Positions 9,844 to 51,862 of a stretch of DNA of 64,000 nt are shown piece after piece (positions within the stretch are counted from its first letter, which is position 1; the number at the start of each line of letters is the position of its first letter). The stretch is from assembly GCA_003551675.1 (NCBI GenBank), contig PUNG01000152.1:5377-69376 (forward strand). Reading direction: 5' to 3'. This DNA is from Thermoplasmata archaeon (GTDB taxonomy: Archaea > Thermoplasmatota > Thermoplasmata > Halarchaeoplasmatales > Halarchaeoplasmataceae). Both the position numbers and the translations under genes were made by a program. The notes below the pieces were generated by a model that saw nothing but the letters and a program-made list of their open reading frames with translations, was not told where the DNA came from and ran no database searches.

Positions 9844-10320
9844 TCAGAAAGCCGAGTCGTAATCTCCTTCGTCTATGAGTTTTTGGACTTCCCTAGGCTC
9901 TTTTTCATCCACGGTGATACCCATGGATACGCAGGTGCCTATGACCTCTTTGGTCTTCTGTTTCAAGTTTTTTCCGAGGAGATCATCTTCTTTCATCTCC
10001 GCGACCTCTTTAGCTTGTTTTATTGTTATGTTTCCCGCTTTACTGGTCTTAGGATTACCGCTCCCCTTTTCGATACCCGCCTTTTCTAAAACTAGGGCGG
10101 ATGTGGGAGGGGTACCTACTTCGATCTCGAAGTCACCAGATTCTGTATCGACCGTGAGTTTTATGGGGACTTTCATCCCTTCAAACTTGCCGGTCTTCTC
10201 GTTTATCGCGTTGACGATTTTCATTATGTCGACTCCGAGAGGTCCCAATTCAGGACCCAGCGGAGGTCCCGCGCTGGCTTCGCCGCCATCAATCAATGCT
10301 TCTATCGTTTCAGTTGCCAT
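9844..10320 (-). CDS. rpl11: 50S ribosomal protein L11 (uL11)
   Basis: uL11 signature SAGPPLGPELGPLGV; 158 aa. Confidence 0.9.
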   Translation of the reverse strand: MATETIEALIDGGEASAGPPLGPELGPLGVDIMKIVNAINEKTGKFEGMKVPIKLTVDTESGDFEIEVGTPPTSALVLEKAGIEKGSGNPKTSKAGNITIKQAKEVAEMKEDDLLGKNLKQKTKEVIGTCVSMGITVDEKEPREVQKLIDEGDYDSAF

Positions 10321-10346
10321 ATTATCATCTCTTTATGTGACTAATA

Positions 10347-11252
10347 TCATCTATCTTTTTCCAGGACTCTGACATGATCGCCTCTAACGGTAACGGGGAT
10401 GGGCACGGTGGCTTCGAACAGTTCCACGGTGATCTCGTCGTTATCTTTATCTATCTGGGCGACCCTTGCCTTCTCCCCCTTGAAAGGTCCTGCGGATAAC
10501 TCTACTATGTCCCCTTCCGCTATACCTTCCACTGCAAGTTTTGGAGCTAGAAAATGTTCTATCTCTTCGATACTCGTTTCGCCTCCTATGACCCCTTTGG
10601 CTTTCCTTGTACCGTCGGTGATCTCGTCGACCAGGGTTGGGTTCATTGCTTCTATAAATACGTATCCTCTGACTGGTTTTGGAGCTAGGATGGAAAAAAC
10701 GCCCATATCTTTATCTTTCGCCCAGGATGCTATGTAATCCGCGACGTTCTTCTCCTGGTTGATCTGAGTTTTCATGGCTATAACGGCCGGTCTCGCAGTA
10801 GTTACTAAAGTCAAAGAATCGGATAACATCTTATCTTTAGATGAAGTCGCATCGATTATGATCTCTGCTTTGTCTCCATAACTAGCTCCCTCTGGAGCAC
10901 GGACACCGATGGGCAACATAAATTCGTCATTTCCGTCAACTTTGATGGTCTTGTTGAATGAATCCGAAGGTTCTGACAATTTATCTCCGTCCCATAAGGT
11001 GATCTGCCACGGTATCGGGTTTTCCTCGTCCGAACTGTACAGTAGATGTATCCTCAAATCGATGCTGATCTCCGAAGACGAGGTGTTGACCAATTTGACA
11101 TTATAAGTGGTTTTTTCTCTAGTAGGGATGGATTTTTTGTAAGGTTCACACTTTAAAATGATTTCTTTCTCTTCCTTTTCCTCCTCTTCCTCGGGAAATT
11201 TTTCTTCTTCCTCTGTGATTTCGTCCTCGGTAAAGTCGTCTAACAGTCCCAT
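10347..11252 (-). CDS. spt5: Transcription elongation factor Spt5 (NusG family) with unusual ~150-aa N-terminal extension
   Basis: C-terminal NGN segment (VIAMKTQINQEKNVADYIA...RGYVFIEAMNPTLV) plus KOW segment (GDIVELSAGPFKGEKARVAQID). The N-terminal 150 aa are acidic (EEEEKFPEEEEEKEEKE) and followed by a beta-rich segment. Confidence 0.8.
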   Translation of the reverse strand: MGLLDDFTEDEITEEEEKFPEEEEEKEEKEIILKCEPYKKSIPTREKTTYNVKLVNTSSSEISIDLRIHLLYSSDEENPIPWQITLWDGDKLSEPSDSFNKTIKVDGNDEFMLPIGVRAPEGASYGDKAEIIIDATSSKDKMLSDSLTLVTTARPAVIAMKTQINQEKNVADYIASWAKDKDMGVFSILAPKPVRGYVFIEAMNPTLVDEITDGTRKAKGVIGGETSIEEIEHFLAPKLAVEGIAEGDIVELSAGPFKGEKARVAQIDKDNDEITVELFEATVPIPVTVRGDHVRVLEKDR

Positions 11253-11286
11253 GTTTTCACCTCGAATAGAATCCCTGATCTCATAA

Positions 11287-11532
11287 TCATCCCATCATGA
11301 AATAATCTGGTAAATTATTCCACAGCCAAGTAAGCAGAAAACCGACTGAGCCTATGAGCAGCAGTCCTCCTACGACTATGAGCAGGGTTTTTTTGAACTC
11401 TTCTCGATCTGGCTTTCTAGCCATCTTGAGAATCCTACCGTATTTGCCTTTTCCTATCTTTCCTGCTTTTTCTTCGATTTTATCTTGTATATTCCAGGAC
11501 CCTTCAATAATGTCCATCTGTTTTCCCCTCAT
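11287..11532 (-). CDS. secE: Preprotein translocase subunit SecE (Sec61 gamma)
   Basis: 81 aa with the motif KPDREEFKKTLLIVVGGLLLIGSVGFLLTWL and a single C-terminal TM. The ftsZ-secE-spt5-rpl11 order is conserved in archaea. Confidence 0.75.
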   Translation of the reverse strand: MRGKQMDIIEGSWNIQDKIEEKAGKIGKGKYGRILKMARKPDREEFKKTLLIVVGGLLLIGSVGFLLTWLWNNLPDYFMMG

Positions 11533-12653
11533 GCAATTGTTTTGATCTCATCTTTATTCATCGCTATCTCTTTTCCAAAGATCTGTTTAGACTTCACTCC
11601 TGTGATGACCACCATAACTTTCAGAGATTTTTCTTGGGTGGGCTCAACCGCGGCACCCCAGATGATCTTAGCATCCTTTCCTATCTTATTCTCTACGATC
11701 TTAGCGACTTCTTCGGCCTCTGATACCGTCATATCGCTACCGCCTACGACGTTGATCAACGCAGCGTTAGCACCACGTATATCCACTTCGAGCAACGGCG
11801 AATTGATGGCGTCTTCTATGGCCTTTTCCGCTCTATTTTCCGAGTCGTCTTCTCCCATGCCTATCATGGCCACTCCCGCTCCTTCCATGACCGTCTTCAG
11901 ATCGTTAAAATCAAGATTGACCAGGCCTGGTTTAGTTACTAGTTCCGTCAAACCTTTGATAGAGCGGGTGAGAACTTCATCGGCTACTTTGAATGCTTTG
12001 TTTAAAGACAAACGCGGACACAGTTCCAGCAGTTTATCGTTCGGGATGGTGATAACGGTGTCTGCCACGTTTTTAAGTCGGGAGAGACCCCATTCTGCGT
12101 TTTCCATCCTGGACTTTCCTTCGGCTTCGAAAGGAGTGGTACAAACTGCAACGGTCAAAGCACCTTCTTTTTTTGCCATCTCGGCCACAACGGGTGCTCC
12201 CCCAGTACCGGTACCTCCTCCCAGTCCACACGTAACGAATACCAGGTCGCTTCCTTCTAAGATATCCTTCAATTTGTCTCTCGCTTCTTCGGTCGCTTCC
12301 ATACCTATCTCGGGTCGAGCCCCTGCACCTAGTCCTCCGGTTTTACGTCGTCCCAATAGCACCTTTCTTTGCGCAAGAACGGTCAAAAGATGCTGAGCAT
12401 CGGTATTAGATGCTATAAGTTCCGCACCTTGTAATCCCTCTTCTGAGATCCGTTCTACAGTGTTGCATCCTGCTCCACCAACCCCGACGATCTTTATGTT
12501 CGTCTTCAGACCTTGAAGTACCTCTCTCAGCTCTTCGTCGGCGGCGGTTAGGTTCTCGCCTCTCTGATCTTTGGACCCCGTCCTTCCTGATTTGCTTCGT
12601 TCAGTTTTAGACAGAGCCTCTTCAACAATCGATTCCATCAATACACACTCCAT
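11529..12653 (-). CDS. ftsZ: Cell division protein FtsZ
   Basis: Tubulin/FtsZ signature GGGTGTGGAPVVAEMAKK; IASNTDAQHL; N-terminal VGVGGAGCN. Confidence 0.9.
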   Translation of the reverse strand: MECVLMESIVEEALSKTERSKSGRTGSKDQRGENLTAADEELREVLQGLKTNIKIVGVGGAGCNTVERISEEGLQGAELIASNTDAQHLLTVLAQRKVLLGRRKTGGLGAGARPEIGMEATEEARDKLKDILEGSDLVFVTCGLGGGTGTGGAPVVAEMAKKEGALTVAVCTTPFEAEGKSRMENAEWGLSRLKNVADTVITIPNDKLLELCPRLSLNKAFKVADEVLTRSIKGLTELVTKPGLVNLDFNDLKTVMEGAGVAMIGMGEDDSENRAEKAIEDAINSPLLEVDIRGANAALINVVGGSDMTVSEAEEVAKIVENKIGKDAKIIWGAAVEPTQEKSLKVMVVITGVKSKQIFGKEIAMNKDEIKTIA

Positions 12654-14634: not shown

Positions 14635-15258
14635 CTAGTTCCATTCTTCGATCCTCCGTATGATCTCCTTTACTTTTTTTTCGTAATCTTTTTTTGACTC
14701 TTCATCCTTGGACCCAGGTCGTAGAAATCTTTCAAGTCCCTTTTTTTGCTCTCTCCCATGATCGTTAGAGAGCATGAAATCCGAGATCATATCGTCTTGA
14801 ACCATGCTGCGGAACTCGTCTGGGTTTCTCAAAAGATATCGTACGTCTTTTTCAGATAGATCTTTTTTTTCTTTCAATTTCATGATGAATATTTTTCTAA
14901 CCTTTTCCAAGAACATTTTTTGACTTATCTTCTTTCCCTCAGAAGCTCTTTGAAGGAGGACCGACGTATCCTGCATCCTTAGGTTTATGGTCTCGTCGAG
15001 TTCCTTTTTTTCTTTCCAGAAATCGGGCTTTTCAGTGGAGCTCATGGTCAACTGGATCAAGTCAAATCCGATGACGATCAGTAAAAGGAATCCCAACGCC
15101 CTTCCTATGCTCTTCTGTATGCCGCTCCCTCCCTCTAATGTCAATACGAAAAAAGAGACGATCAACAGCAGTAGTAGGATGTAATAGACATTCGAACTTT
15201 TTTTCCGTAGGATCAGGTCTTTTTTGATCATCGACATGTTAAACGAGGTTTCAGACAT
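14635..15258 (-). CDS. Membrane protein with 2 TM and cytoplasmic helical K/E-rich domain (module gene B, copy 1)
   Basis: Paralogous to 23035..23577 and 26419..27087 (shared C-terminal DVRYLLRNPDEFRSMVQDDMISDF / EVNKLIRYPDKFRDVVKDDTLADF / DIKELLKNEDDLRKIVEDETLVDF). Confidence 0.5.
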   Translation of the reverse strand: MSETSFNMSMIKKDLILRKKSSNVYYILLLLLIVSFFVLTLEGGSGIQKSIGRALGFLLLIVIGFDLIQLTMSSTEKPDFWKEKKELDETINLRMQDTSVLLQRASEGKKISQKMFLEKVRKIFIMKLKEKKDLSEKDVRYLLRNPDEFRSMVQDDMISDFMLSNDHGREQKKGLERFLRPGSKDEESKKDYEKKVKEIIRRIEEWN

Positions 15259-16289: not shown

Positions 16290-16492
16290 ACATAAAAGAG
16301 TCTGGTGAGCACGAGTTGAAAGCGGAAGGTGTGAGCCTCACTTTTACAGTCGAAGAAGTCACAACCGACAGCTGGTTGGTAGTTGCGTTGATCCTCTCGA
16401 TCATAGCTCTGCTCTTGTTCGTCTGGATGGGGATGCAAAGTGACGAGAAGACGGTTGATAAGCCCACCCTTAGGAAAAAAGAGAATGAGTGA
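16290..16492 (+). pseudogene. 3' fragment of a surface-protein paralogue (C-terminal TM-anchor coding remnant)
   Basis: Its translation LKAEGVSLTFTVEEVTTDSWLVVALILSIIALLLFVWMGMQSDEKTVD matches the C-terminus of the 16546..19575 product (AEGFTRIIDVEEVTTDGWLIAALILSIIALLVFVWMGMESDGKTVD). Nucleotide identity is high, and no upstream gene body is present. Confidence 0.55.
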
Positions 16493-16545: not shown

Positions 16546-19500
16546 ATGTATATCTATATAGTCTATAAAAGAAGGATTTGTATGAGGGAAAAGAGATTGG
16601 TCTTCGTCGTAAGTTGCCTACTTATAACCGGCGGGATGGTAGTTGTTGTCGGGGGCGAGGCGATAGAAGGGAACGAAAGTGTTGGTGGAGTGACAGGGGA
16701 AAATGAACCGCAGGCTGTTCAAGAGATCCACGACTGGTACGATCTCGATGATGTGCGGGACGATCTAGACGGCGATTATATTCTGATGAACGATTTGGAT
16801 GAAAATACCGACGGTCATGACGAATACAACAACCAGAAAGAGAATTATAAAATCAGAGAAGATGCTGGATATGAAGAAGCTTGGGACGATGGCGATACGA
16901 TAGATATACCCTTTGATGAAGATGATTATGATTCAGTTTTATCAGTTGAAGATGAAGACGGAAACTCTATAGATCATACTGTAGACCATCCCACGATCAC
17001 AATAGATGAAGACACGGGGGAACGATATATTTATGTAAACTACGAAGATGCTGTTGTGGGCTGGGAGCCGATAGGTGATGATGATGACGGATTTTCAGGT
17101 ACTTTCGACGGAGATGATTATGAAATAAGGGACCTCTACACCGACCGATTAGGCACAGATAACGTTGGCCTGTTTGGGTATATCGATGAAGGTGGAGAAG
17201 TTCGCAACGTTGGTGCTGTCGATACGGATGTGAGGGGATTCATTGGTGTAGGCGGGCTCATAGGATTTATCTATGAAGGCACGATCGAAAACTCATACGT
17301 CACGGGTGATGTGAGTGGAGACTCGCATGTTGGTGGGCTCGTTGGATGGAACGCGGGGGAAGGCACGGTGGCGAACTCGTATGCTACGGGAGATGTGAGT
17401 GGAGAAGGTGGTATAGGTGGGCTCGTTGGAACGAACATAGGCACGGTGGCGAACTCGTATGCAACTGGAGACGTGAGAGGGGGAGGTGGTATAGGCGGGC
17501 TCGTTGGATCGAACTCTGGCCTGGTGGCGAACTCGTATGCTACTGGTGTGGTGAGCGGGGGAGACAGTGTAGGCGGGCTCGTTGGTGTGAACCATGATAC
17601 GGTGTCGAACTCGTATGCTACTGGTGTGGTGAGTGGGGGAGATGGTATAGGCGGGCTCGTTGGAATGAACATAGGCACGGTGTCAAACTCGTATGCTATA
17701 GGAGATGTGAGTGGAGACGAGCTTGTAGGCGGGCTCGCAGGACTTAACTATAAAGGCACGATCGAAAACTCGTATGCAACTGGAGGGGTGAGCGGAGATG
17801 AGGACATAGGTGGGCTCGTTGGATTGAAATTTGAAGGCAGCACGGTTGAGAACTCGTTCTGGGATATCGAAACATCAGGACAAGATGATTCCAACGGCGG
17901 TACAGGGAAGACCACCGTTGAGATGAAGGATGCTGTGACCTACACAGATACAAGTACTGAAGGATTGAACGAGCCGTGGGATTTCGTAGGCGATCCGAAC
18001 GACGACGAAGGTGATGAGGATATATGGGACATCGACGATAGTACTAACGACGGATATCCATTCTTGACTTGGTCAGCAAGGGAACTTGCGATAAACATCG
18101 AAGGCAAAGGTAATACCGAACCTTTGGAAGGTACTCACACCTATGTAAAAGGTACTGAGGTAACTGTTACAGCAACGCCTGATGAGGGCTGGTACTTTGA
18201 CGGTTGGACTGGCGATCACGAAAATGCCAACAGGGAGATAACGATAATCATAGATGACAATAAAATCCTGACGGCTAATTTTGATGAGATAAGAGAAGGA
18301 GAACAAGTTTTAACGATAAATGTTGATGGTGAAGGCACGACGGAGCCGAAGCCAGGAGATCACATCTATGACAAGGGTGAAGAAGTCACGATTAAAGGGA
18401 TTCCGGAAGAAGGCTGGTACTTTGTCGAATGGACCGGCGATCACGAAGGTACAGAAGACAAGCTCACTATAACTATGGACGAGGATAAAGAAGTAACAGC
18501 TCATTTTGCCATACACGAATACACCTTGACGGTGAACGTCGAAGGAGAAGGAACTACCGATCCTGAAGAAGGTATTCATAGTTATGAAAAAGGAGATATC
18601 GTGACGGTTGAAGCTACGCCCGCAGAGGACTGGATTTTTGTAGAGTGGATAGGAGACGAGGTAGGAACGGACACGACCATAGAGATAAATATGTACGAAA
18701 ACAAGAGTATAACGGCTGTCTTCGAAGAGATCCAAACATACGAGTTGACGGTAGATGTAGAGGGTGAAGGCACCGTAGAAGTTGAGCCTGAGCGGGAAGA
18801 GTACGAAGAGGGCACGGAAGTCATTTTAACAGCGGTACCTGACGAAGGTTGGTACTTCGAAGAGTGGACAGAAGACTATGAAAGTACTGAAGACGAACTC
18901 ACCATAATCATGGACAGTAACAAAGAAATCACGGCATGGTTCGAAGAGGAAGTAAAGTATCACGAGCTAGAGGTGAACATAGACGGTGAAGGCACCGTAG
19001 AAGTTGAGCCCGAGCAGGACGAGTACGAAGCGGGCACGGAAGTCACTTTAACAGCGGTACCTGCCGAAGGTTGGTACTTCAAAGAGTGGTCTGGTGACGA
19101 AACAAGTACAGAAGTGGAAATCACCGTCACCATGGACGAAGACAAAAACATCACCGCACATTTCGAGAAGTTAGCTCCTGCGGAATTCGAATTCTCTGCC
19201 CTAACAATAGAGCCGGGAGAACCGGAGGTGGGCGAAGAAATCAAGATAAACATAGAAGTGACCAACATGGGTGGGCTAGAAGGAGAATACACCGTAGAAT
19301 TTTACATGAACCATGCTCTCATCGACGAAGTAGATGTAGAGCTGGAGGCCGGTGAAACAAAAACGGTTTCAACGACCTACGAGATCGAAGAGGCTGGGGA
19401 TTATCACATAGAAGCGGAAGGTTTCACTCGGATTATCGATGTCGAAGAAGTCACCACCGACGGTTGGTTGATCGCCGCTTTGATCCTTTCGATCATCGCT

Positions 19501-19575
19501 CTACTCGTGTTCGTCTGGATGGGGATGGAGAGTGACGGGAAGACAGTTGATGCTCCCGAGGAGGACGAAGACTAA
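16546..19575 (+). CDS. Large cell-surface protein: signal peptide, GLUG-motif repeats, about 7 Listeria-Bacteroides-type repeats, CARDB-like domain, C-terminal TM anchor
   Basis: N-terminal signal/TM segment (LVFVVSCLLITGGMVVVVGG) and an acidic region. About 8 repeats of GGLVG.N.GTV.NSYATGDVSG are GLUG-like. About 7 repeats carry GWYF.EWTGD...ITA.F. A CARDB-like segment reads EPGEPEVGEEIKINIEVTNMGGLEGEYTVEFYMN. The C-terminal TM is WLIAALILSIIALLVFVWMG, followed by an acidic tail. Confidence 0.85.
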   Translation: MYIYIVYKRRICMREKRLVFVVSCLLITGGMVVVVGGEAIEGNESVGGVTGENEPQAVQEIHDWYDLDDVRDDLDGDYILMNDLDENTDGHDEYNNQKENYKIREDAGYEEAWDDGDTIDIPFDEDDYDSVLSVEDEDGNSIDHTVDHPTITIDEDTGERYIYVNYEDAVVGWEPIGDDDDGFSGTFDGDDYEIRDLYTDRLGTDNVGLFGYIDEGGEVRNVGAVDTDVRGFIGVGGLIGFIYEGTIENSYVTGDVSGDSHVGGLVGWNAGEGTVANSYATGDVSGEGGIGGLVGTNIGTVANSYATGDVRGGGGIGGLVGSNSGLVANSYATGVVSGGDSVGGLVGVNHDTVSNSYATGVVSGGDGIGGLVGMNIGTVSNSYAIGDVSGDELVGGLAGLNYKGTIENSYATGGVSGDEDIGGLVGLKFEGSTVENSFWDIETSGQDDSNGGTGKTTVEMKDAVTYTDTSTEGLNEPWDFVGDPNDDEGDEDIWDIDDSTNDGYPFLTWSARELAINIEGKGNTEPLEGTHTYVKGTEVTVTATPDEGWYFDGWTGDHENANREITIIIDDNKILTANFDEIREGEQVLTINVDGEGTTEPKPGDHIYDKGEEVTIKGIPEEGWYFVEWTGDHEGTEDKLTITMDEDKEVTAHFAIHEYTLTVNVEGEGTTDPEEGIHSYEKGDIVTVEATPAEDWIFVEWIGDEVGTDTTIEINMYENKSITAVFEEIQTYELTVDVEGEGTVEVEPEREEYEEGTEVILTAVPDEGWYFEEWTEDYESTEDELTIIMDSNKEITAWFEEEVKYHELEVNIDGEGTVEVEPEQDEYEAGTEVTLTAVPAEGWYFKEWSGDETSTEVEITVTMDEDKNITAHFEKLAPAEFEFSALTIEPGEPEVGEEIKINIEVTNMGGLEGEYTVEFYMNHALIDEVDVELEAGETKTVSTTYEIEEAGDYHIEAEGFTRIIDVEEVTTDGWLIAALILSIIALLVFVWMGMESDGKTVDAPEEDED
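17290..17830 (+). repeat. ~60-bp tandem nucleotide repeats (about 8 units) encoding GLUG motifs
   Basis: Recurring units such as ggtataggcgggctcgttgga...ggcacggtggcgaactcgtatgctactggag...gtgagtgg occur with high inter-unit identity. Confidence 0.7.
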
Positions 19576-19790: not shown

Positions 19791-20537
19791 ATGATCGAGG
19801 TATGGAATATGAGGAGTTTCACCAGGACAAAAGTCCTGATCGTTTTGGGGCTTATCTTGTTCAGTCCGGTACTTCCCTGGTATTATGGGGGAGAACAACA
19901 TGGCGAGCAGCTTTCTAGGGTCCCGGACTCTGAAAGCGTCAACTTGAACCCCGGTGATGATATGTTCACTTACCATTTTAGGGCCGAAGCCGAGGACGAA
20001 ATACATATCAGAGTATCCTCCGACAGACAGCCGTCTTTCCAAGTGGTCCTCATACCCGTAGAACACCTGGACGAATATAGACAAGATCCATCCTTTACAG
20101 ATATAGAGAAGATCGAAGAGGCGTCCAACAAACAAACCAGATCGTTCAGGGCACATCTATCCGTACCTGAAGAGGGCGAATACGTTCTGGTCGTTCGTTC
20201 CTTGGACTCCAGGAGTGCGGTTTACAACGTTTTGATCGGAAGAGGTCTTTTTTCATCGATGGTGGTACGATCAGGAGGATTTGTGGAGTTTTTCGGTATC
20301 CTCTTTATGGGTGTCGGTGCTGTATCCGCTAGCATCTATCTTTACATGAGGTTGAAAGAAAAAAAGAAAGACTCACTGAAGAACGGAATTTCCTTGGATA
20401 TGAGTTTATCGCAGATCGATGAGGAAGACAAGGAGAGATACAAAACGGAGGAAAAAAGACCGGATATAGGCTCTTCCACCCATACCGTCGAGGACGACTC
20501 TTCACCCGAAGAAGACTACCTTAGATATGATGATTGA
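19791..20537 (+). CDS. Secreted/membrane-anchored protein of unknown function (signal peptide, C-terminal TM, acidic tail)
   Basis: N-terminal hydrophobic segment VLIVLGLILFSPVL, a central soluble domain, a C-terminal TM FGILFMGVGAVSASIYLYM and a D/E-rich tail. Confidence 0.45.
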   Translation: MIEVWNMRSFTRTKVLIVLGLILFSPVLPWYYGGEQHGEQLSRVPDSESVNLNPGDDMFTYHFRAEAEDEIHIRVSSDRQPSFQVVLIPVEHLDEYRQDPSFTDIEKIEEASNKQTRSFRAHLSVPEEGEYVLVVRSLDSRSAVYNVLIGRGLFSSMVVRSGGFVEFFGILFMGVGAVSASIYLYMRLKEKKKDSLKNGISLDMSLSQIDEEDKERYKTEEKRPDIGSSTHTVEDDSSPEEDYLRYDD

Positions 20538-20605
20538 ATACAAGTCCGACCGAAGAGTTAAAAGTAGTAACGATTATTTATTTTCTGAGATGATAGGAGA
20601 CAGTC

Positions 20606-21205
20606 ATGAGTAAAACAGGAAAGTACCGTTCTCTAGATCTCGATGATAGCAACTCGAGGACAAAGGCCAATCCCTTCTTGAGAGTGATCGCTTTTTTTAT
20701 AGACGTGGTGATGATCAGGCTCGTTGTGGAGTTTGTAGCGTTTTCTCTGGCCCGGGCAGAATTGATCTCTGAAAGATGGATGGACGTAGTCGGAGGATAC
20801 CTAAGAGAAGGTCTAGCTCCATTACGAGGGGGTGCCATGAGTAGGGAAGAGATACTCATCATAACATCCACCGAGGACCTAACGGTACATATCCTCTACA
20901 GTGCTTTGTTTTTGATGTATTTTATTTTACTGGAGTCCAGGTACGGCTGGGGTCAGACAATCGGGAAGAAGATCTTGAGCATGGAAGTTTTAGACCGACA
21001 CAGCAAAAAGATATCCTTGAAGGAATCATCTTTACGGAACATCCCCAAGTACGTACTCCGCATACCGGTAGTGGGAGTTTTTTTTGGCTTGTTCGAGTTG
21101 TTTCTGATGTTCTATTACCTCAAACGAACAGGCGATATCTTGGCGAACACCGACGTGGTTTCACAGTATGGAAAAGGCTTGCTAGGACGGATCTTCTCTA
21201 GATAG
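20606..21205 (+). CDS. RDD-family membrane protein (tentative)
   Basis: The N-terminus ANPFLRVIAFFIDVVMIRLV resembles the RDD-domain start. There are 3-4 TM helices. Confidence 0.45.
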   Translation: MSKTGKYRSLDLDDSNSRTKANPFLRVIAFFIDVVMIRLVVEFVAFSLARAELISERWMDVVGGYLREGLAPLRGGAMSREEILIITSTEDLTVHILYSALFLMYFILLESRYGWGQTIGKKILSMEVLDRHSKKISLKESSLRNIPKYVLRIPVVGVFFGLFELFLMFYYLKRTGDILANTDVVSQYGKGLLGRIFSR

Positions 21206-24584: not shown

Positions 24585-25247
24585 TCAACCGATCTTCTTA
24601 CGTGCGAAGTACTTCGGTAAGAAAACTACGACTCCGTATACCGCTGTGAAAACTACTGCACCGAACAGGAGTATGATAAATGTGGCAAGATCAGGGGAAA
24701 AAGGTCCCACGAAACTATAGATGGCTACGACTCCTCCCAACGAAGCTACGACGAATCCCCAAAACAAAGACCACAGGTGATAATGTGCGGAATGTCTTTT
24801 GTATTCCTGAAGAAGATCCGTCTCTCCGTCTCCCTGCATATCTTTTTCTATCTCTCCGATCAACGATGCTCTTCTCATGAATGACCATGCACCAAAATAT
24901 AGGATGAACATGGTCAAAATAAAGATGAGATTAGCAGGGTTTAGTGAGATATAACGGACGAAGTAGAAAAAGGACGAAGCCGAAGCGAGGATACTCACAT
25001 CCACTGCAATTTTTATTTCCCGGTAGAATCCGATGATACCTACAGAACCACTTACCAGAGGAAACCACCATCCAGAAGTATCGTAAGATACCGCGGAGGC
25101 TAATAGACAGATGGTGAAGACGAACACGCCTAGTAAGATCTTATCAATTTTCAGCCTCCACTCATCTTCCAATATCTTATCACCTCCTCTAAAGACGCCT
25201 CTAAAGGTTCGTTGGGATCCCAGTCCACTACCACGCTGTATTTCCAC
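24585..25247 (-). CDS. Polytopic membrane protein (module gene D-like, copy 3, more divergent)
   Basis: 220 aa with about 5-6 TM helices, in the same position and orientation as gene D in copies 1 and 2. Similarity is weak. Confidence 0.4.
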   Translation of the reverse strand: MEIQRGSGLGSQRTFRGVFRGGDKILEDEWRLKIDKILLGVFVFTICLLASAVSYDTSGWWFPLVSGSVGIIGFYREIKIAVDVSILASASSFFYFVRYISLNPANLIFILTMFILYFGAWSFMRRASLIGEIEKDMQGDGETDLLQEYKRHSAHYHLWSLFWGFVVASLGGVVAIYSFVGPFSPDLATFIILLFGAVVFTAVYGVVVFLPKYFARKKIG

Positions 25248-45566: not shown

Positions 45567-47087
45567 CTAATATACCTTTTGAAGTCTTGGATGCTCTTCC
45601 AATATCATACCTTCAACTTTTAAAGGTTTCAAGTGTTTAGCTACCTTCACGGCTTCCTCTAATTCTTTCTTACTCTCAGAATACAATCTGTATAGGCATT
45701 CGTCCTTTTCTACCTTATCTCCCTTTTTCTTTTCCAAGAACAAACCAGCACCTTTACAGTGTGGTCCTCCTGCGGCTCTAACGATCCTGATTATCTCGTC
45801 ATTGTTTATACTGTTCACGTATCCTTCTTCTAATGAGCAGATCTCTTCGGAGTACTTTCCTATCTCGACATCTTCGGAACTTACTTCGGGATCACCACCT
45901 TGCCTGTCTATTATCTGTTTCATCTTGTCCAATGCCTTCCCACTTTTCAGGATCCGCTTAGCTTCTTTTTTTCCATTTCTTGAGCCCCCCAGCTCTAATA
46001 TCATGCCTGCTAGTGTAGTAGATTTTTCTATCAGGCTGGAAGGTACATCCTTACTCTCCAAAGCTCTCAGGGCTTCTTTCGCCTCTATGGCGGGCCCCAC
46101 AGCTCTTCCTACCGGTTGTCCGCCGTAGCTCAGGGCACATCTGGTTTCTATACCTATCTCCTCACCCAGTGAGACAAAATCCCGGGCATATCTTCGTCCT
46201 TCTTCCAGGCTTTTAACTTTGGTGTTTTCCCCTATAGGTATATCCATAACAAGATATTCCGCTCCTGCGGCTTTTTTCTTAGACAGGACCGAAGCCAATA
46301 CCTGGGCATAGGGGTCGATCCTCAAAGGATATTCGGCCTTTATTATCAGATCATCGCTGGGAGCCAGATTTACGGCGCCGCCCCATGCGATGGTTCCTCC
46401 TATATCCTCGGCGATCTCTTTTATCTGCTCCGTTGTCAAAGTAACATCGGCCAAAGTTTCGAATATATCTGCCGTACCTCCTGCGCTAGATATGGCCCTG
46501 GAGCTGGTTTTGGGTATCATCAGACCGGCGGCGGCGATGATGGGAACTATCAATAAAGTGATCTTGTTACCAGGAACGCCACCGATACTGTGGTGATCGA
46601 AGACGGGATGCTTGTCGAATTCTATCTTATCGCCTGTATCGATCATGGCTTGGGTAAGATCTTTTATCTCTCTCTGGTTCATACCCTGGGAATATACGCC
46701 CGAGACGTAGGCTGAAAGCTCTATATCCGATAAACGTCTTTCTACGATATCTTGGATTATCTCGTTGATAGCATGGGTAGATAATTCCTTTCCCTCCAAT
46801 TTTTCCCTTATATGTTCGACTGATTCGGGTCTGCCAGTTTGATTCACGCTCAGTCTTTTGCCTTCCTCCGCATGGATCTCGTCTACGATCTTTTCTACCA
46901 GGCCGATCTCTCCTTCGTCCACTAACGTTCTAGATACTTTTACCACTGCAGTGGTGTTTTTTCCATTTTTGTTAACCCTGACCCTGCTCTGACTTTGTAA
47001 CCCCATCCTTTTCGCATCTTCTTTGTGAAGGATAACAACATGTTCTTCAGATTCGAGATCTATGATCTTGGCAGTTAGTTTGATCAT
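45567..47087 (-). CDS. deoA: AMP phosphorylase (thymidine phosphorylase family)
   Basis: HSIGGVPGNKITLLIVPIIAAAGLMIPKTSSRAISSAGGTADIFE; about 505 aa. The start is assumed at MIKLTAKIIDL. Confidence 0.85.
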   Translation of the reverse strand: MIKLTAKIIDLESEEHVVILHKEDAKRMGLQSQSRVRVNKNGKNTTAVVKVSRTLVDEGEIGLVEKIVDEIHAEEGKRLSVNQTGRPESVEHIREKLEGKELSTHAINEIIQDIVERRLSDIELSAYVSGVYSQGMNQREIKDLTQAMIDTGDKIEFDKHPVFDHHSIGGVPGNKITLLIVPIIAAAGLMIPKTSSRAISSAGGTADIFETLADVTLTTEQIKEIAEDIGGTIAWGGAVNLAPSDDLIIKAEYPLRIDPYAQVLASVLSKKKAAGAEYLVMDIPIGENTKVKSLEEGRRYARDFVSLGEEIGIETRCALSYGGQPVGRAVGPAIEAKEALRALESKDVPSSLIEKSTTLAGMILELGGSRNGKKEAKRILKSGKALDKMKQIIDRQGGDPEVSSEDVEIGKYSEEICSLEEGYVNSINNDEIIRIVRAAGGPHCKGAGLFLEKKKGDKVEKDECLYRLYSESKKELEEAVKVAKHLKPLKVEGMILEEHPRLQKVY

Positions 47088-47091
47088 GGGT

Positions 47092-48321
47092 TCACATCCA
47101 TTTATCAAGGGCCTTTTTTAACTCGGTATGCTCTTTTGCATACTCTCTCAATCCGATCCCCGAACAGACGGCATCTACAGCTTGCGTCAACGCCTTAGCT
47201 CCCGCCATCACTCCGTCCGGGTGACCCGAGACACCTCCTCCTGCTTGTATTTGAACGTCTTTACCGCTCACATCCATGAGTTCTTGTACTAATCCAGGAT
47301 GGAGTCCGCCGCTTGAAACCGGCATCACTTTTTTTAAGTCGTGTTCTTCACCTAGTAATACTTCTTTCGAAAATAGCTCTTCAGATATGTCGGCGTGCAT
47401 CTTTCCGGCCCCGTACGTACCCGTATGCAGAGCGTCTCCTCCTGCCATCCTTACCAGTTTGGCTATGACAGGCATGGAGATCCCGTGGTCTGGATTTTTT
47501 GTTATGGCTCCGTGCATGGCTCTATGTACGTGTATAGGCACATCCACTGAAGGATCTTCAGCCAAAGCCTGTAGACCGGGGAACCCTACGGTCAAAACGT
47601 CCACCATAAGTTGTCTAGCACCGTTTTCCAATGCTATATCCGCCGCATCCAATATCTCATGGGCGTTGGTACTGATGTTGTGGGCATGTATCATCTGGTG
47701 ACCTTCTTCTTGAAGCAGGTCCAGCTTTTCACTCACACAGTTTACCCTATCTTCCAAGGGACAGAAGTCTTGGTCCACCAGGGTCTCGTCGTCTTTAGAG
47801 TTAGTGAGTCCACCCTTTCCCGCCTGGTAAACGTAGTCGGCGAATTCCTTGGGTGGCAGTCCTATCTTCGGTTTCACGATGGTCCCTACTAGAGGTTTTT
47901 TAGGTCTGTTAAGTATCGTTCTCAAACCCTCCAGGCCGAATCGGGGTCCAGGATAGTTTTTTACGAGCTTAGAGGGCATCTCTAGATTCACTAAACGCAC
48001 TCCCTCTAACGAATCTAAACCAAAAAGGTTGCCGGCGATTATACTCAAAATCTGGGGGATACCTCCTATGTCGCCTGAAAAATCTATTACAGGGTAGCCT
48101 ATCCTGACTTTGTCGTTCTTGGCCTCAGTAACTTTTGCTCCGTACCTCTGGAATATATCATCCGATAGGGTGGTAGGATGAGTCCAAGTTCCTGTGGATT
48201 CTTCTTCGGCTATCCTCACTCCCGCGGTTTTTATATCCAAGTCGCTTTTGACGGTATATTCACATATCACATACTCTTCCGGGTCTAACTCTTCATCCAA
48301 TGCTAAGTAATCCATACTCAT
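47092..48321 (-). CDS. rbcL: Ribulose-1,5-bisphosphate carboxylase, form III large subunit
   Basis: RuBisCO large-subunit motifs (GGLDFTKDDE-like TNSKDDETL; VSSGGLHPGLV; GGGVSGHPDG). The ATG at 48319..48321 overlaps the TGA stop of the upstream isomerase gene (ATGA). Confidence 0.9.
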   Translation of the reverse strand: MSMDYLALDEELDPEEYVICEYTVKSDLDIKTAGVRIAEEESTGTWTHPTTLSDDIFQRYGAKVTEAKNDKVRIGYPVIDFSGDIGGIPQILSIIAGNLFGLDSLEGVRLVNLEMPSKLVKNYPGPRFGLEGLRTILNRPKKPLVGTIVKPKIGLPPKEFADYVYQAGKGGLTNSKDDETLVDQDFCPLEDRVNCVSEKLDLLQEEGHQMIHAHNISTNAHEILDAADIALENGARQLMVDVLTVGFPGLQALAEDPSVDVPIHVHRAMHGAITKNPDHGISMPVIAKLVRMAGGDALHTGTYGAGKMHADISEELFSKEVLLGEEHDLKKVMPVSSGGLHPGLVQELMDVSGKDVQIQAGGGVSGHPDGVMAGAKALTQAVDAVCSGIGLREYAKEHTELKKALDKWM

Positions 48322-49241
48322 GATTCCATCTCCTTTATTATTCGGTATGCTCCTTCGGGCGATATGACCCCGTTTTCGGTTATTATACAATCTATATATT
48401 CCGAAGGAGTCGCGTCGAAAACGGGGTTTCTTATCTCAACACCAGGAAATTTTTTGGGATCTACGATCTCAGAGGGGTCCCTTTCCTCGATGGGCACCAG
48501 ATCACCGAATGCAGTTTTTCTCGAAAATTTATAACTCTCCGCACAGACGGTGAGAGGCACCCTCGCTTCGTTTGCACACAATGCCACCTGAGATGTACCG
48601 ATCTTGTTGATAACCGCTCCGTTAGAGGTTATGGTATCCGCTCCCACATAAACTTTATCCACGTCTTTCATGGTATGTCTTACGGCGGAATCCACGATGA
48701 GAGTAACGGGTACTCCTACGTTAGAGAGTTCTTTGATGGTTATGTAGCCCTGTTTTTTGGGACGTGATTCGGTGGCGATCACTTTTATGTTCTTACCTTG
48801 ATCCCACGCGTACTTGATCGCGGCCAATGCTAAGGAACTGTTGCAGTGAGTCAATATCACATCGTCTTCTCCGATCCTTTTACCACCGTATTCTGCTATA
48901 TTCTCCTTCGCTTCCAATGAACGTTGGATAAAATCCGAGCAGTTCTTCTTTATCCTTTTTTTCAGTCGTTCAACGTCTTCTTCTTTTTGCGCTCCTTTCA
49001 TGGCACACACAAGGCAGTTCTCTAGAGACACCGCAGTTGGCCTAGTACTGAGCAATTCAGATCTGCATCTTTCCAATTCCTTTAAAAGATCTTCTTTATC
49101 TTCGTTTTCAAACTCTTCTATGACTTTTTTAAGCGCATGGGCTCCAGCCCTAGCTATCTCAGCGGCCCCTCTTATCTCCATGCATTCTATCTTTTCAGCG
49201 ATCTCTTGTATATCGAGTTTCTCTATATCTTCGCACTCCAT
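48318..49241 (-). CDS. Ribose-1,5-bisphosphate isomerase (eIF2B-like family)
   Basis: eIF2B/MtnA-like fold (VILTHCNSSLALAAI...VGADTITSNGAVINKIGT) and a position directly upstream of rbcL. Confidence 0.8.
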   Translation of the reverse strand: MECEDIEKLDIQEIAEKIECMEIRGAAEIARAGAHALKKVIEEFENEDKEDLLKELERCRSELLSTRPTAVSLENCLVCAMKGAQKEEDVERLKKRIKKNCSDFIQRSLEAKENIAEYGGKRIGEDDVILTHCNSSLALAAIKYAWDQGKNIKVIATESRPKKQGYITIKELSNVGVPVTLIVDSAVRHTMKDVDKVYVGADTITSNGAVINKIGTSQVALCANEARVPLTVCAESYKFSRKTAFGDLVPIEERDPSEIVDPKKFPGVEIRNPVFDATPSEYIDCIITENGVISPEGAYRIIKEMES

Positions 49242-49287: not shown

Positions 49288-49938
49288 TCACATATCTAGG
49301 ACATCAAAGAGAGCGGACAGATCCTTTTCTTCTATGACCCAATCCGCAGATCTTTTTACCTTTTCGTCGTCCGGATTGAATGCTATACCCAATCCAGCCC
49401 TTTCAAGCATGGGCGCATCGATATGACTGTTTCCTATGGCTACGCATCGTTCTTTTTTTATGCCTTCTTCGGAGAGCAGTTTTTCGAGGATATCCCCTTT
49501 GTTTTTCAAAGGTACGTCTACGATCCCACGGGAGCTCAACCTTCCTTCATGATCTTTTATATCGTTGGCAAATATCCTGTCAAAGTATTCTCCGCCTACG
49601 TGTTCCGCCAAAGGCTTCAAACCGCCGCTGATTATCGCCGTGTTGTAATTCTCTTTTAGAGAAGGTATCACTTTATGAAAACCTTTCATCACAGGTGCTG
49701 TTTTCAATATGTCTATGATATCTTGTCTCGATATGTTAGGTTCGGCGGACTTCCAAAGTTCGATATCTCTTCTGATGAATTCACCATCGTCTATATCGCC
49801 TCTTTCGTACGCTTTTAAAGAATCTTCGTTATCGACTCCGAATCTATCGTGGATCCATGCCCATGAACTTTTCGCATCGATGAGCACACCATCCATATCG
49901 AATACGATGATCTTCCAATCTGAACTCATTTTATCCAT
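49288..49938 (-). CDS. HAD-superfamily phosphatase (PSP-like)
   Basis: Motif I IVFDMDGVLID and motif IV GNSHIDAPML. Confidence 0.75.
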   Translation of the reverse strand: MDKMSSDWKIIVFDMDGVLIDAKSSWAWIHDRFGVDNEDSLKAYERGDIDDGEFIRRDIELWKSAEPNISRQDIIDILKTAPVMKGFHKVIPSLKENYNTAIISGGLKPLAEHVGGEYFDRIFANDIKDHEGRLSSRGIVDVPLKNKGDILEKLLSEEGIKKERCVAIGNSHIDAPMLERAGLGIAFNPDDEKVKRSADWVIEEKDLSALFDVLDM

Positions 49939-51862
49939 TTATCTCGTCCATGCTCTTTTTGTACTTCTTTAGATTTTCAAAACTTTTTTTGACGTCTCCT
50001 CTTTTTAGAGCTTTGTTCGTTTCTTTTAGATATTTCACGGGTTTCGATACGTCAGCACCCTTTATTTTTGCCTCTTTCAATTTGTTTTTTGCACCTTTTA
50101 TCTCATCTCTCAAGATCGCTGGCAGCTCATCGGATAATTTATCCTCCGCTTGTAAAAGGAATTTTCTAGATATCTGTGGATTTTTTTGTTTACTCCTCTC
50201 TTTCGCTTTTTTCAGCAGTTTTTCGGCTTCAGGAAACTTAAAACCATGTTCTTTTACGTCTTTTATTATACCTTCTAGTACGGCGATATCTTTTTTCACC
50301 TCTTCCATGACCTCTTTTTTATCCTCGGCTTTTTCTTTTCGTTTCTCCTCTATCTTTTCTTTCGCCTTTTCTATGGACTCAGAAACTTTTTCATAATCCT
50401 CTTGGTCTCTATACTTTTTTATGTCTTCTATTATGGTGCCTCTCTCTTTTTGTGGCAGTCGTCTCTCTATATTTTTTATCTTTTCGTTTATCTGGTTTTC
50501 GAGTTTTTTCTGGAAAAATATCTTACACTCATTTAATGAATTCAAGGCATCCTCGTATTCGTTATCCTTTGTCTTTTTCACAGCTTGGTTGATCAGTTCT
50601 TTCCCATCTTTAACGTCGACATCGAAGTTTTTAGCGGTTTTCAGAAGCGCCGTCATCTCGGGTATCTTCTGTTGTATTTTCTTGAAGTGATCCTTCTTAT
50701 CTTGATCTTTGAAAACCAATTTTTTTTCTAAAGTCTTCTTCATCTCTGCGATATTTTCATCTAATAGATCTTTTGCTTCAGTGAAATCACCATGTTCCGC
50801 TTTGTCCATGGCCTCATCTATTTTATTTGAATATTCGCTGGTGTCTACGCCTTTAAGACTGAGTTTTTCCAGATGTGATTTAGCTTCGGCGGCGTCTTCG
50901 GCAACATCGTACAAACTTTCTGACATCTTTTGCGCACTCATAAGGCTGTGGTAGCTCGCCAGTATCCGGTTTTTTTTCTTTTCTTTTTCAGCTTTTTTCA
51001 GCATCTTTTTGATCCGGTGGGTTTTGATGATCTTCTTCTCTAACTCCGAAAGTATCTCTTGAATCGATTTTTTCTTCTCTTTCATCACCTTTGAGAATTC
51101 GTGTTTTTTCGTCAGTCCCATATCCTCGACGACTTCTTCTACGTCCCTTTCGACTTCTTTCGCCTTTTTCGCCGCTATGGCATACTCGCCTATTTCACAA
51201 CCCCTGTATACCTGATCCAACCAACCTTCGATCTCAGATGCATCAGTCTTTTGGGAGATCCATTCAAGGTAATTCTTGCATCTTTCCAACCTTTCCTTTA
51301 TCTCTTCAGCGTGACTTATGGTGATCTTCAATCGTTCCATCAGTGTATTTTCTCTTTCAGGATCTAATTCGTCGGTCTTTTTTACTTCTTCGAGATCCTC
51401 TTTTATCTCCTCCAATCCTATTCCAAATCGGTCCAACTTCCCTATCCTTTTTTCAAAAGATTCGATGCTGTCTTCTTCCTCTACTTCGTCTATTTCGACC
51501 TCATCCTCCTCTTCCTCTGCTTCGAACACAACGCCACACTCAGGGCATTTAGAAGCGTCATCCGAGACCTCGCTCTCGCATATGGGGCACTCAAAGGTGA
51601 AGAAACTTTCATCTTCGGACTCTTCTAAGATATCCTCTTCAGACAGCCCCAACTCTTCGAGATCACCTATCAGTTCTTCTTCGTCCTCCTCGTCGAGTAC
51701 CAGACCCATGACTTTTTCTATGGATTCCTCTGATACTTCTTCATCTAGATCTATACCTTCCTCGAAAAGGTTTAGATCAGCTTTGCACACAGGGCATCTA
51801 TCTTTGCCCTGGGGTACCTCTGAATCGCAGACTGGACATGGTCTTTTAGAATCTTTTGCCAA
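49931..51862 (-). CDS. Double zinc-ribbon, acidic, long coiled-coil protein of unknown function
   Basis: N-terminal CPVCDSE...CPVCKAD and CPICESE...CPECGV zinc ribbons, D/E-rich linkers and about 450 aa of K/E-rich predicted coiled coil. Confidence 0.5.
   Translation of the reverse strand: MAKDSKRPCPVCDSEVPQGKDRCPVCKADLNLFEEGIDLDEEVSEESIEKVMGLVLDEEDEEELIGDLEELGLSEEDILEESEDESFFTFECPICESEVSDDASKCPECGVVFEAEEEEDEVEIDEVEEEDSIESFEKRIGKLDRFGIGLEEIKEDLEEVKKTDELDPERENTLMERLKITISHAEEIKERLERCKNYLEWISQKTDASEIEGWLDQVYRGCEIGEYAIAAKKAKEVERDVEEVVEDMGLTKKHEFSKVMKEKKKSIQEILSELEKKIIKTHRIKKMLKKAEKEKKKNRILASYHSLMSAQKMSESLYDVAEDAAEAKSHLEKLSLKGVDTSEYSNKIDEAMDKAEHGDFTEAKDLLDENIAEMKKTLEKKLVFKDQDKKDHFKKIQQKIPEMTALLKTAKNFDVDVKDGKELINQAVKKTKDNEYEDALNSLNECKIFFQKKLENQINEKIKNIERRLPQKERGTIIEDIKKYRDQEDYEKVSESIEKAKEKIEEKRKEKAEDKKEVMEEVKKDIAVLEGIIKDVKEHGFKFPEAEKLLKKAKERSKQKNPQISRKFLLQAEDKLSDELPAILRDEIKGAKNKLKEAKIKGADVSKPVKYLKETNKALKRGDVKKSFENLKKYKKSMDEING

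Follow-up and report, generated by a model that had tools for sequence, protein, structure and literature searches.

Gene B, the small membrane-protein gene that stands between the DUF4129 and DUF58 genes of three modules in a 64-kb stretch of archaeal DNA (hereafter the window), is best explained as a DUF4350-type subunit of the DUF4129/DUF4350/MoxR/DUF58 membrane system that has no ectodomain. We assign this explanation as a whole a probability of roughly 70%. Its core, namely the identity of gene B as a DUF4350-type subunit without the ectodomain and the homology on which this identity rests, appears very probable from the sequence comparisons described below. The initial annotation had left the protein outside any named family, and in one refinement of that reading the gene B family can now be placed, as its sequences point to homology with the transmembrane (TM) anchors and the cytoplasmic tail of DUF4350-type proteins. 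What is new here is an ectodomain-less variant of a known, uncharacterised subunit, which is a finding of annotation and of evolution.

Archaea and Actinobacteria, among the latter M. tuberculosis (Rv3689-Rv3695), widely carry the DUF4129/DUF4350/MoxR/DUF58 cluster, for which, to our knowledge, no function is known. We take the mycobacterial counterpart, Rv3689-Rv3695, to comprise the DUF4350 protein Rv3691, the MoxR protein Rv3692, the DUF58 protein Rv3693, the SpoIIM-like protein Rv3694c and the RDD protein Rv3695. In M. chelonae, the DUF4350, MoxR, DUF58, SpoIIM-like and RDD genes (homologs of Rv3691-Rv3695) were found to be co-regulated (PMC8191103). DUF58 has no established function (PMC12067865), and MoxR/DUF58 systems pair a cytoplasmic machinery with membrane proteins (PMC12067865, PMC8430577). 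Our literature search returned no functional study of DUF4350, DUF4129 or DUF7269 and no discussion of the DUF4350 tail.

All three modules of the window lie on the minus strand and share the gene order DUF4129, gene B, DUF58 and a multi-TM protein (Table 1). Pfam and module HMMs bear out what had been noted of this arrangement, namely that a protein of 180-222 aa stands between the DUF4129-like and DUF58 genes in every module. The ATG start of gene B copy 1 lies 3 nt past the DUF4129 stop codon, and 46 nt separate the end of the copy from the DUF58 gene. ATGA start/stop overlaps occur at three gene B junctions, those of copies 2 and 3, and they indicate translational coupling of gene B with its neighbours. 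Identity of the two paralogs to copy 1 is low, at 29-33%, and 26 alignment columns are invariant. The fourth module gene, which encodes a multi-TM protein of 175-220 aa, has no Pfam or NCBIfam family assigned to it, though it is kept in more than 40 modules. In module 3, the ORF of this gene overlaps the DUF58 gene by 97 nt, and for this reason its true start probably lies further downstream, inside the ORF.

Table 1. Positions of the modules, their genes and the features of gene B copy 1 in the window
Feature	Position	Strand	Support and remarks
Module 1	16239 down to 12754	minus	
Module 1 DUF4129 protein, 325 aa	15262..16239	minus	~6 TM and C-terminal DUF4129 domain; Pfam PF13559, 30.4 bits (cutoff 24.8)
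Gene B copy 1, 207 aa	14635..15258	minus	ORF; family profile E 3e-51; DUF4350-tail HMM E 4.2e-4 (among 3,320 ORFs)
Gene B copy 1, TM helix 1, aa 23-41	15136..15192	minus	hydropathy and AF2 helix 23-41; translation checked
Gene B copy 1, TM helix 2, aa 46-74	15037..15123	minus	hydropathy and AF2 helix 46-74; translation checked
Family signature R-A-x-x-G-x-x-x-S-Q, aa 104-113, RASEGKKISQ	14920..14949	minus	turn between cytoplasmic helices 1 and 2; translation checked
Conserved block LLRNPDEFRSMVQDDMISDF, aa 142-161	14776..14835	minus	holds family-wide D155 and F161; inside the segment aligned to DUF4350 tails
C-terminal E-x-W motif, aa 204-206	14641..14649	minus	also in DUF4350 tails, e.g. ...KIEAWST, ...MREWG
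Module 1 DUF58 protein, 428 aa	13302..14588	minus	N-terminal 2-TM hairpin; Pfam PF01882, 66.9 bits
Module 1 multi-TM protein, 183 aa	12754..13305	minus	fourth module gene; downstream of DUF58 in at least 40 modules
Inter-module pair	19791..21205	plus	248-aa TM-ectodomain-TM protein (p248), 19791-20537; RDD-family protein, 20606-21205
Module 2	24512 down to 21198	minus	
Module 2 DUF4129 protein, 312 aa	23574..24512	minus	DUF4129 module HMM E 7e-115
Gene B copy 2, 180 aa	23035..23577	minus	family profile E 3e-49; tail HMM E 7.1e-5; ATGA overlap with upstream DUF4129 gene
Module 2 DUF58 protein, 441 aa	21752..23077	minus	module HMM E 4e-214
Module 2 multi-TM protein, 175 aa	21198..21725	minus	module HMM E 6e-67
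Module 3	27923 down to 24585	minus	
Module 3 DUF4129 protein, 279 aa	27084..27923	minus	module HMM E 7e-90
Gene B copy 3, 222 aa	26419..27087	minus	family profile E 8e-51; tail HMM E 1.6e-4; ATGA overlaps at both junctions
Module 3 DUF58 protein, 423 aa	25151..26422	minus	module HMM E 4e-217
Module 3 multi-TM protein, 220-aa ORF	24585..25247	minus	module HMM E 3e-74

For the protein encoded by copy 1, hydropathy and an AlphaFold model with a mean pLDDT of 82.5 concur on a two-helix hairpin followed by an all-helical tail. This is the result of the structure prediction that the initial annotation had proposed as a check, and it agrees with the description given there of a conserved small two-TM protein with a charged helical cytoplasmic domain. 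The loop between TM1 and TM2 in the window copies counts only about 4-12 residues, and the residues K, R, D and E make up 45-46% of the tail. We infer that the tail is cytoplasmic from the K/R-rich N-terminus, from the hairpin topology and from the homology to DUF4350 proteins, in which the ectodomain lies between the TM helices. The motif L(L/I)(R/K)NPD.FR..V.DD...DF, quoted earlier for the C-terminal part, is exact in copy 1 but is off at one position in copy 2 and at three in copy 3, so that it describes a consensus and not a strict pattern.

The extent of the family was assessed by an exhaustive HMMER search with a six-sequence gene B profile against representatives of 50%-identity clusters. 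It returned 146 cluster representatives at E<=1e-3, among which 27 reach E<=1e-30; with few exceptions they measure about 170-240 aa, and they show two TM peaks in almost every case. Conservation is therefore broad and not confined to the genome of origin, and it is far beyond chance. Among 136 family members, the residues of the RAxxGxxxSQ signature are each present in 75-87%, E204 in 79% and W206 in 76%; for the signature, D155, F161 and the E-x-W residues taken together, the range is 75-89%. Scans of Pfam and NCBIfam gave no model with a meaningful score for any window copy of gene B, as the earlier failure to name a family would lead one to expect. A PADLOC scan of the module proteins gave marginal matches only (E>=6.5e-4, <=17.5 bits), with no defence-system model among them, and the best PDB match to the family profile (E 0.073) was noise. 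Word-indexed searching proved too insensitive for this family: with the alignment of the three paralogs it gave 6 matches and only three relatives; with the 136-sequence alignment, none of the 10 matches listed was annotated as DUF7269.

The relationship to DUF4350-type proteins was examined through the long proteins that occupy the position of gene B (slot B) in Poseidoniales/MGIII modules (L063-L091). These are DUF4350 proteins, with 40.5-47 bits to PF14258 against a cutoff of 30.4, and the match spans only the ectodomain between their two TM helices, a region that also gives sub-threshold GIFT/GldG-like matches. In the canonical DUF4350 layout, a GIFT-like extracytoplasmic domain of about 375 aa lies between TM1 and TM2, and TM2 leads into a helical tail of about 100 aa in the cytoplasm. 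The gene B profile is collinear with the long proteins at domain E-values of 6e-9 to 9e-5, its positions 15-41 corresponding to TM1, 44-72 to TM2 and 107-160 to the tail; the long proteins have about 375 additional residues between TM1 and TM2. Remote homology searches, another check named in the initial annotation, likewise place gene B with these proteins. Specifically, when the gene B family (136 members) was aligned with 21 DUF4350 tails by hhalign, the probability was 97.4%, the E-value 9.5e-12 and the score 69.9, compared with a score of 17.5 for reversed tails and at most 13.2 for 20 column shuffles; the alignment spans 102 columns (query columns 68-202), beginning where TM2 ends and reaching the C-terminus. 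An HMM built from the tails only picks up gene B copies 1, 2 and 3 of the window (E 7e-5 to 4e-4 among 3,320 ORFs). At E<=1e-3 it finds 28 complete short-form ORFs, or 29 matches with one contig-truncated long form, and its one off-target match among the 3,320 ORFs has an E-value of 0.002. The landmarks common to gene B and the DUF4350 tails include the Trp after TM2, an (L/M)(S/T)R(E/D)E helix, a D..L..F block and a terminal R(I/M)xxW(G).

By homology of TM1, TM2 and tail, together with gene position, all three window copies belong to the DUF4350-type slot-B group. The slot is the one held by DUF4350 proteins (PF14258, e.g., Rv3691 of M. tuberculosis in Rv3689-Rv3695), after DUF4129 and before MoxR/DUF58, and the Trp after TM2, the D..L..F block and the C-terminal E-x-W recur in both. 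In contrast to these proteins, gene B has no GIFT-like ectodomain, the part that defines PF14258, and so it is not a member of the Pfam family: no window copy matches PF14258 even at E<=1, let alone at the required 30.4 bits. The absence of this domain is also why domain databases miss gene B. Nor is gene B a degenerate fragment of a known domain, an outcome that had been considered for it, as the DUF4350 domain is wholly absent and the other conserved parts are kept. The two tails are not fully equivalent, since gene B has an extra cytoplasmic helix-turn with RAxxGxxxSQ that has no counterpart in DUF4350 tails. The modules of the window further differ from DUF4350 systems in having no MoxR gene. 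As to origin, the short and long forms may have arisen either by loss of the ectodomain or by its insertion.

Genomic context was examined in 78 loci from species-representative genomes, with DUF58 as the anchor and module components annotated by HMM; among 87 non-redundant DUF58-anchored modules, upstream DNA was usable in 78. The slot after DUF4129 holds the short gene B in 57 of these 78 modules, which answers the question of co-occurrence with DUF58 and DUF4129 raised in the initial annotation. A long protein of 430-600 aa fills it in 19 modules (Poseidoniales/MGIII and relatives), and an unrelated small 2-TM protein in 2, both of them bacterial loci. As candidate homologs of gene B, the slot 2-TM proteins of Anaerolineales and Spirochaetaceae loci were rejected, with hhalign probabilities of 1.9% and 10.9% and a match in architecture only. 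Of the 57 short-form modules, 16 carry MoxR in the interval from gene B to DUF58, and the other 41 have no adjacent MoxR. Short-form hosts are haloalkaliphilic Thermoplasmatota (Natronoplasma, Saliniplasma, Halarchaeoplasma) and Methanomassiliicoccales-like MAGs, as well as one Bathyarchaeia MAG and one Thermoproteota-labelled MAG. Family members follow directly after a DUF4129 gene in 8 of 8 contig look-ups, and even the weakest family match (P0148, E 7e-4) lies in a locus with the order DUF4129, gene B, MoxR, DUF58.

The earlier suggestion that strict positional conservation marks an obligate subunit is supported by these data: gene B occupies one and the same slot in all 57 non-redundant short-form modules, and DUF58 is the component whose divergence it follows most closely. 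The distance correlation of this pair, r = 0.895, is the highest of the six component pairs, and such a correlation can come from co-inheritance alone. In other genera, separate orthologs exist for each of the three window paralogs, which means that the triplication is old and that the modules do not exchange parts. Between the nearest gene B orthologs, which are 41-47% identical (70-73% for DUF58), synonymous sites are saturated.

Several other explanations of gene B were weighed against the DUF4350-type assignment. One of them would make it a divergent member of DUF7269 (PF23933), an uncharacterised archaeal family of haloarchaeal 2-TM proteins whose size is similar to that of gene B, with the likeness to DUF4350 tails being secondary or compositional. 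No paper mentioning DUF7269 was found in our literature search; haloarchaeal DUF7269 genes presumably also neighbour DUF58 and DUF4129 genes. Collinear alignment with PF23933 over the TM hairpin and the first part of the tail occurs in 17 of the 136 members of the gene B family (residues ~7-119 against profile positions 3-119 of 162; best E 1.2e-5), and one Bathyarchaeia member gives a weak match. However, the individually listed members score 23 bits or less, all family members stay below the gathering score of 29.1 bits, and the three window copies have no match to PF23933 even at E<=1. A search from the family member closest to DUF7269 returned Thermoplasmata proteins only. The similarity to DUF4350 tails, in turn, is reciprocal and survives the reversal and shuffling controls, and we regard membership in DUF7269 as quite unlikely. 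The two relationships are compatible, as DUF7269 may itself be a short-form branch; on the sequence alignments, it is probably another such branch, linked to the same system as gene B.

Gene B might also be a non-functional remnant of a DUF4350 gene, left after deletion of the ectodomain and passively carried in the operon. It does lack the only Pfam-defined domain of its long relatives, and it evolves fast compared with DUF58. Against decay stand the retention of length, hairpin and the residues R104, A105, G108, S112, Q113, D155, F161, E204 and W206 in 136 members from several archaeal lineages, the presence of gene B in all three ancient paralogous modules as well as in every short-form module, and the conserved helix absent from the long form, which is a gain. 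A remnant is therefore highly improbable. An unrelated small membrane protein (holin-like, stress-response or similar) whose position is coincidental has next to no probability. The weak, scattered Pfam matches to holin, Ninjurin and DUF4131-type TM families that could speak for such a protein are single, sub-threshold and restricted to TM segments, there is no PADLOC model, the slot is invariant across lineages, and all family-profile matches among the 3,320 ORFs fall in this one slot. These context statistics effectively refute that explanation.

The DUF4350-type assignment raises the question of the MoxR ATPase, of which no gene was found among the ORFs of the 64-kb window. As regards membership in a MoxR/DUF58 system, a DUF58 gene adjoins every gene B copy (by Pfam PF01882 in module 1 and by module HMM in the other two), and an AAA_3 MoxR gene, absent from the operons of the window, is present in the 16 short-form modules of relatives mentioned above. 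DUF58 is common to the window modules and to the MoxR (MRP subfamily) AAA+/DUF58/VWA systems, namely the mycobacterial moxR1 operon, the Bacteroides Bat operon and the bifidobacterial PFNA cluster; MoxR is common to those systems and to the relatives of the window modules. In contrast, the moxR1, Bat and PFNA operons have VWA, transglutaminase or FN3 partners in place of DUF4129 and a slot-B protein, and the window modules have neither an ATPase nor a VWA/MIDAS protein and essentially no extracytoplasmic domain.

Between modules 1 and 2, the window encodes the p248 protein and an RDD-family protein (Pfam PF06271, 59.6 bits), separated by 68 nt, and homologs of the two recur in 8 and 11 loci, respectively. 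In one relative (L019, 1578-4118), a stand-alone MoxR gene lies exactly between the p248 and RDD homologs; the window thus lacks an ATPase where this relative carries one. The arrangement suggests that a shared ATPase acts in trans and that it is missing from the p248-RDD position in the window. The layout of p248 (TM-ectodomain-TM-tail) is that of DUF4350 proteins, and the gene B profile does not match it. In another locus (L054, 7966-12963, minus strand), a partial second module composed of a 1009-aa DUF4129 protein, a 328-aa TM protein and MoxR is convergent with a short-form module that has no ATPase, and this partial module has no DUF58 of its own in the locus.

Such findings could be taken to mean that gene B is a dedicated adaptor that recruits or regulates MoxR and that modules without the ATPase strictly need MoxR in trans. 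In the long-form modules and in the 16 short-form modules with MoxR, the slot-B gene stands directly before the MoxR gene, the stop codon of the one often overlapping the start codon of the other, and stand-alone MoxR genes are found beside ATPase-less modules in L019 and L054. Nevertheless, the window has no MoxR, and 41 of the 57 short-form modules, its own three included, have no adjacent MoxR gene, which weakens ATPase recruitment as the main job of the tail. Among those 41, only 2 loci have a MoxR gene within 6 kb. Matched by a strict regular expression, the signature motif occurs in 5/16 modules with an adjacent MoxR and in 20/41 without one, which are similar rates with no clear difference. 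Moreover, gene B co-varies best with DUF58, and a dedicated MoxR adaptor is in our estimation unlikely.

Taking gene B as the ectodomain-less DUF4350-type subunit, a role in the system can be proposed. All soluble parts of the module would be cytoplasmic, as indicated by the DUF4129 protein with its ~4-6 TM helices and C-terminal domain, the DUF58 protein with its N-terminal hairpin and large globular part, and the K/R-rich N-terminus of gene B. The TM hairpin of gene B would sit in the membrane beside the polytopic DUF4129 protein, the DUF58 hairpin and the fourth, multi-TM protein, and its conserved tail would serve as a cytoplasmic docking or adaptor element for the beta-sandwich/VWA-like domain of DUF58 and, where MoxR is present, also for the MoxR AAA+ ring. 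Long-form systems would use the tail to link their ectodomain with the DUF58/MoxR machinery in the cytoplasm, and the short form would dispense with input from outside through the ectodomain. In the lineage of the window, where the module is triplicated with no ATPase gene in cis, MoxR would be encoded elsewhere in the genome, or the modules would function without ATP-driven remodelling. We propose this adaptor mechanism of the tail tentatively, at somewhat less than even odds. A more far-reaching idea is that the four-gene modules without ATPase and ectodomains, with 3-4 or more ancient copies per genome in haloalkaliphilic Thermoplasmatota and one of them by ftsZ-secE-spt5, form an autonomous, MoxR-independent membrane-cytoplasm assembly in which the RAxxGxxxSQ helix replaces a function of the ectodomain or the ATPase, for example in organising the envelope or the division site; this we consider speculative and decidedly improbable.

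On this assignment, the conserved core of a DUF4350-type subunit consists of the two TM helices and the cytoplasmic tail and not of the domain that gives the family its name, and many archaea keep that core only. An unannotated family of at least 146 clusters is thereby placed. The cytoplasmic tail would be the likeliest part to contact DUF58 or MoxR and is where experiments should point, and the natural minimal modules, which have neither ATPase nor ectodomains, could offer a simpler system for reconstitution or structural work.

Some further observations concern the distribution of the modules. In the window, ftsZ, secE, spt5 and L11 adjoin module 1 (ftsZ-side region 9844-12653). One module copy adjoins ftsZ-secE-spt5-L11 in 13 loci of halophilic Thermoplasmatota, including L004, L005, L016, L017, L019, L031, L036, L041 and L042, and in 12 of those ftsZ-linked loci alanyl-tRNA synthetase lies on the other side of the module. 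This adjacency may represent synteny of the lineage and not a functional link. The DUF4129/DUF58 module system is usually single-copy, and its amplification is unusual. Single MAGs of halophilic Thermoplasmatota carry 3-4 or more paralogous modules on separate contigs; MAGs with several modules include JAGXLI01 (L014/L025/L040/L053), PWHU01 (L016/L048) and CAZRSB01 (L017/L026/L056). A locus labelled as Neomarinimicrobiota bacterium (L084) holds a Poseidoniales-type DUF4350-MoxR-DUF58 module whose gene lengths, coordinates and tail sequence are nearly identical to those of L083 and L086, and its contig is probably mis-binned.

Additionally, other features of the window were recorded. A direct repeat of 164 nt with 77% identity (16296-16459 and 19388-19551) has its upstream copy in the divergent intergenic region between module 1 and the gene of a 1009-aa Glug/Flg_new_2/CARDB surface protein (16546-19575). 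This upstream copy encodes a relic of the C-terminal TM anchor of that adjacent protein, with 62% identity over 61 aa. Genes for AMP phosphorylase-like (513 aa), form III RuBisCO-like (432 aa) and ribose-1,5-bisphosphate isomerase-like (307 aa) proteins lie at 45567-49241 on the minus strand and, read by eye from their translations, would constitute the archaeal AMP salvage pathway. On the same strand, positions 49931-51862 encode a protein of 643 aa in which zinc-ribbon motifs (CPVC...CPVC, CPIC...CPEC) at the N-terminus precede a very long region that is rich in K and E and presumably forms a coiled coil.
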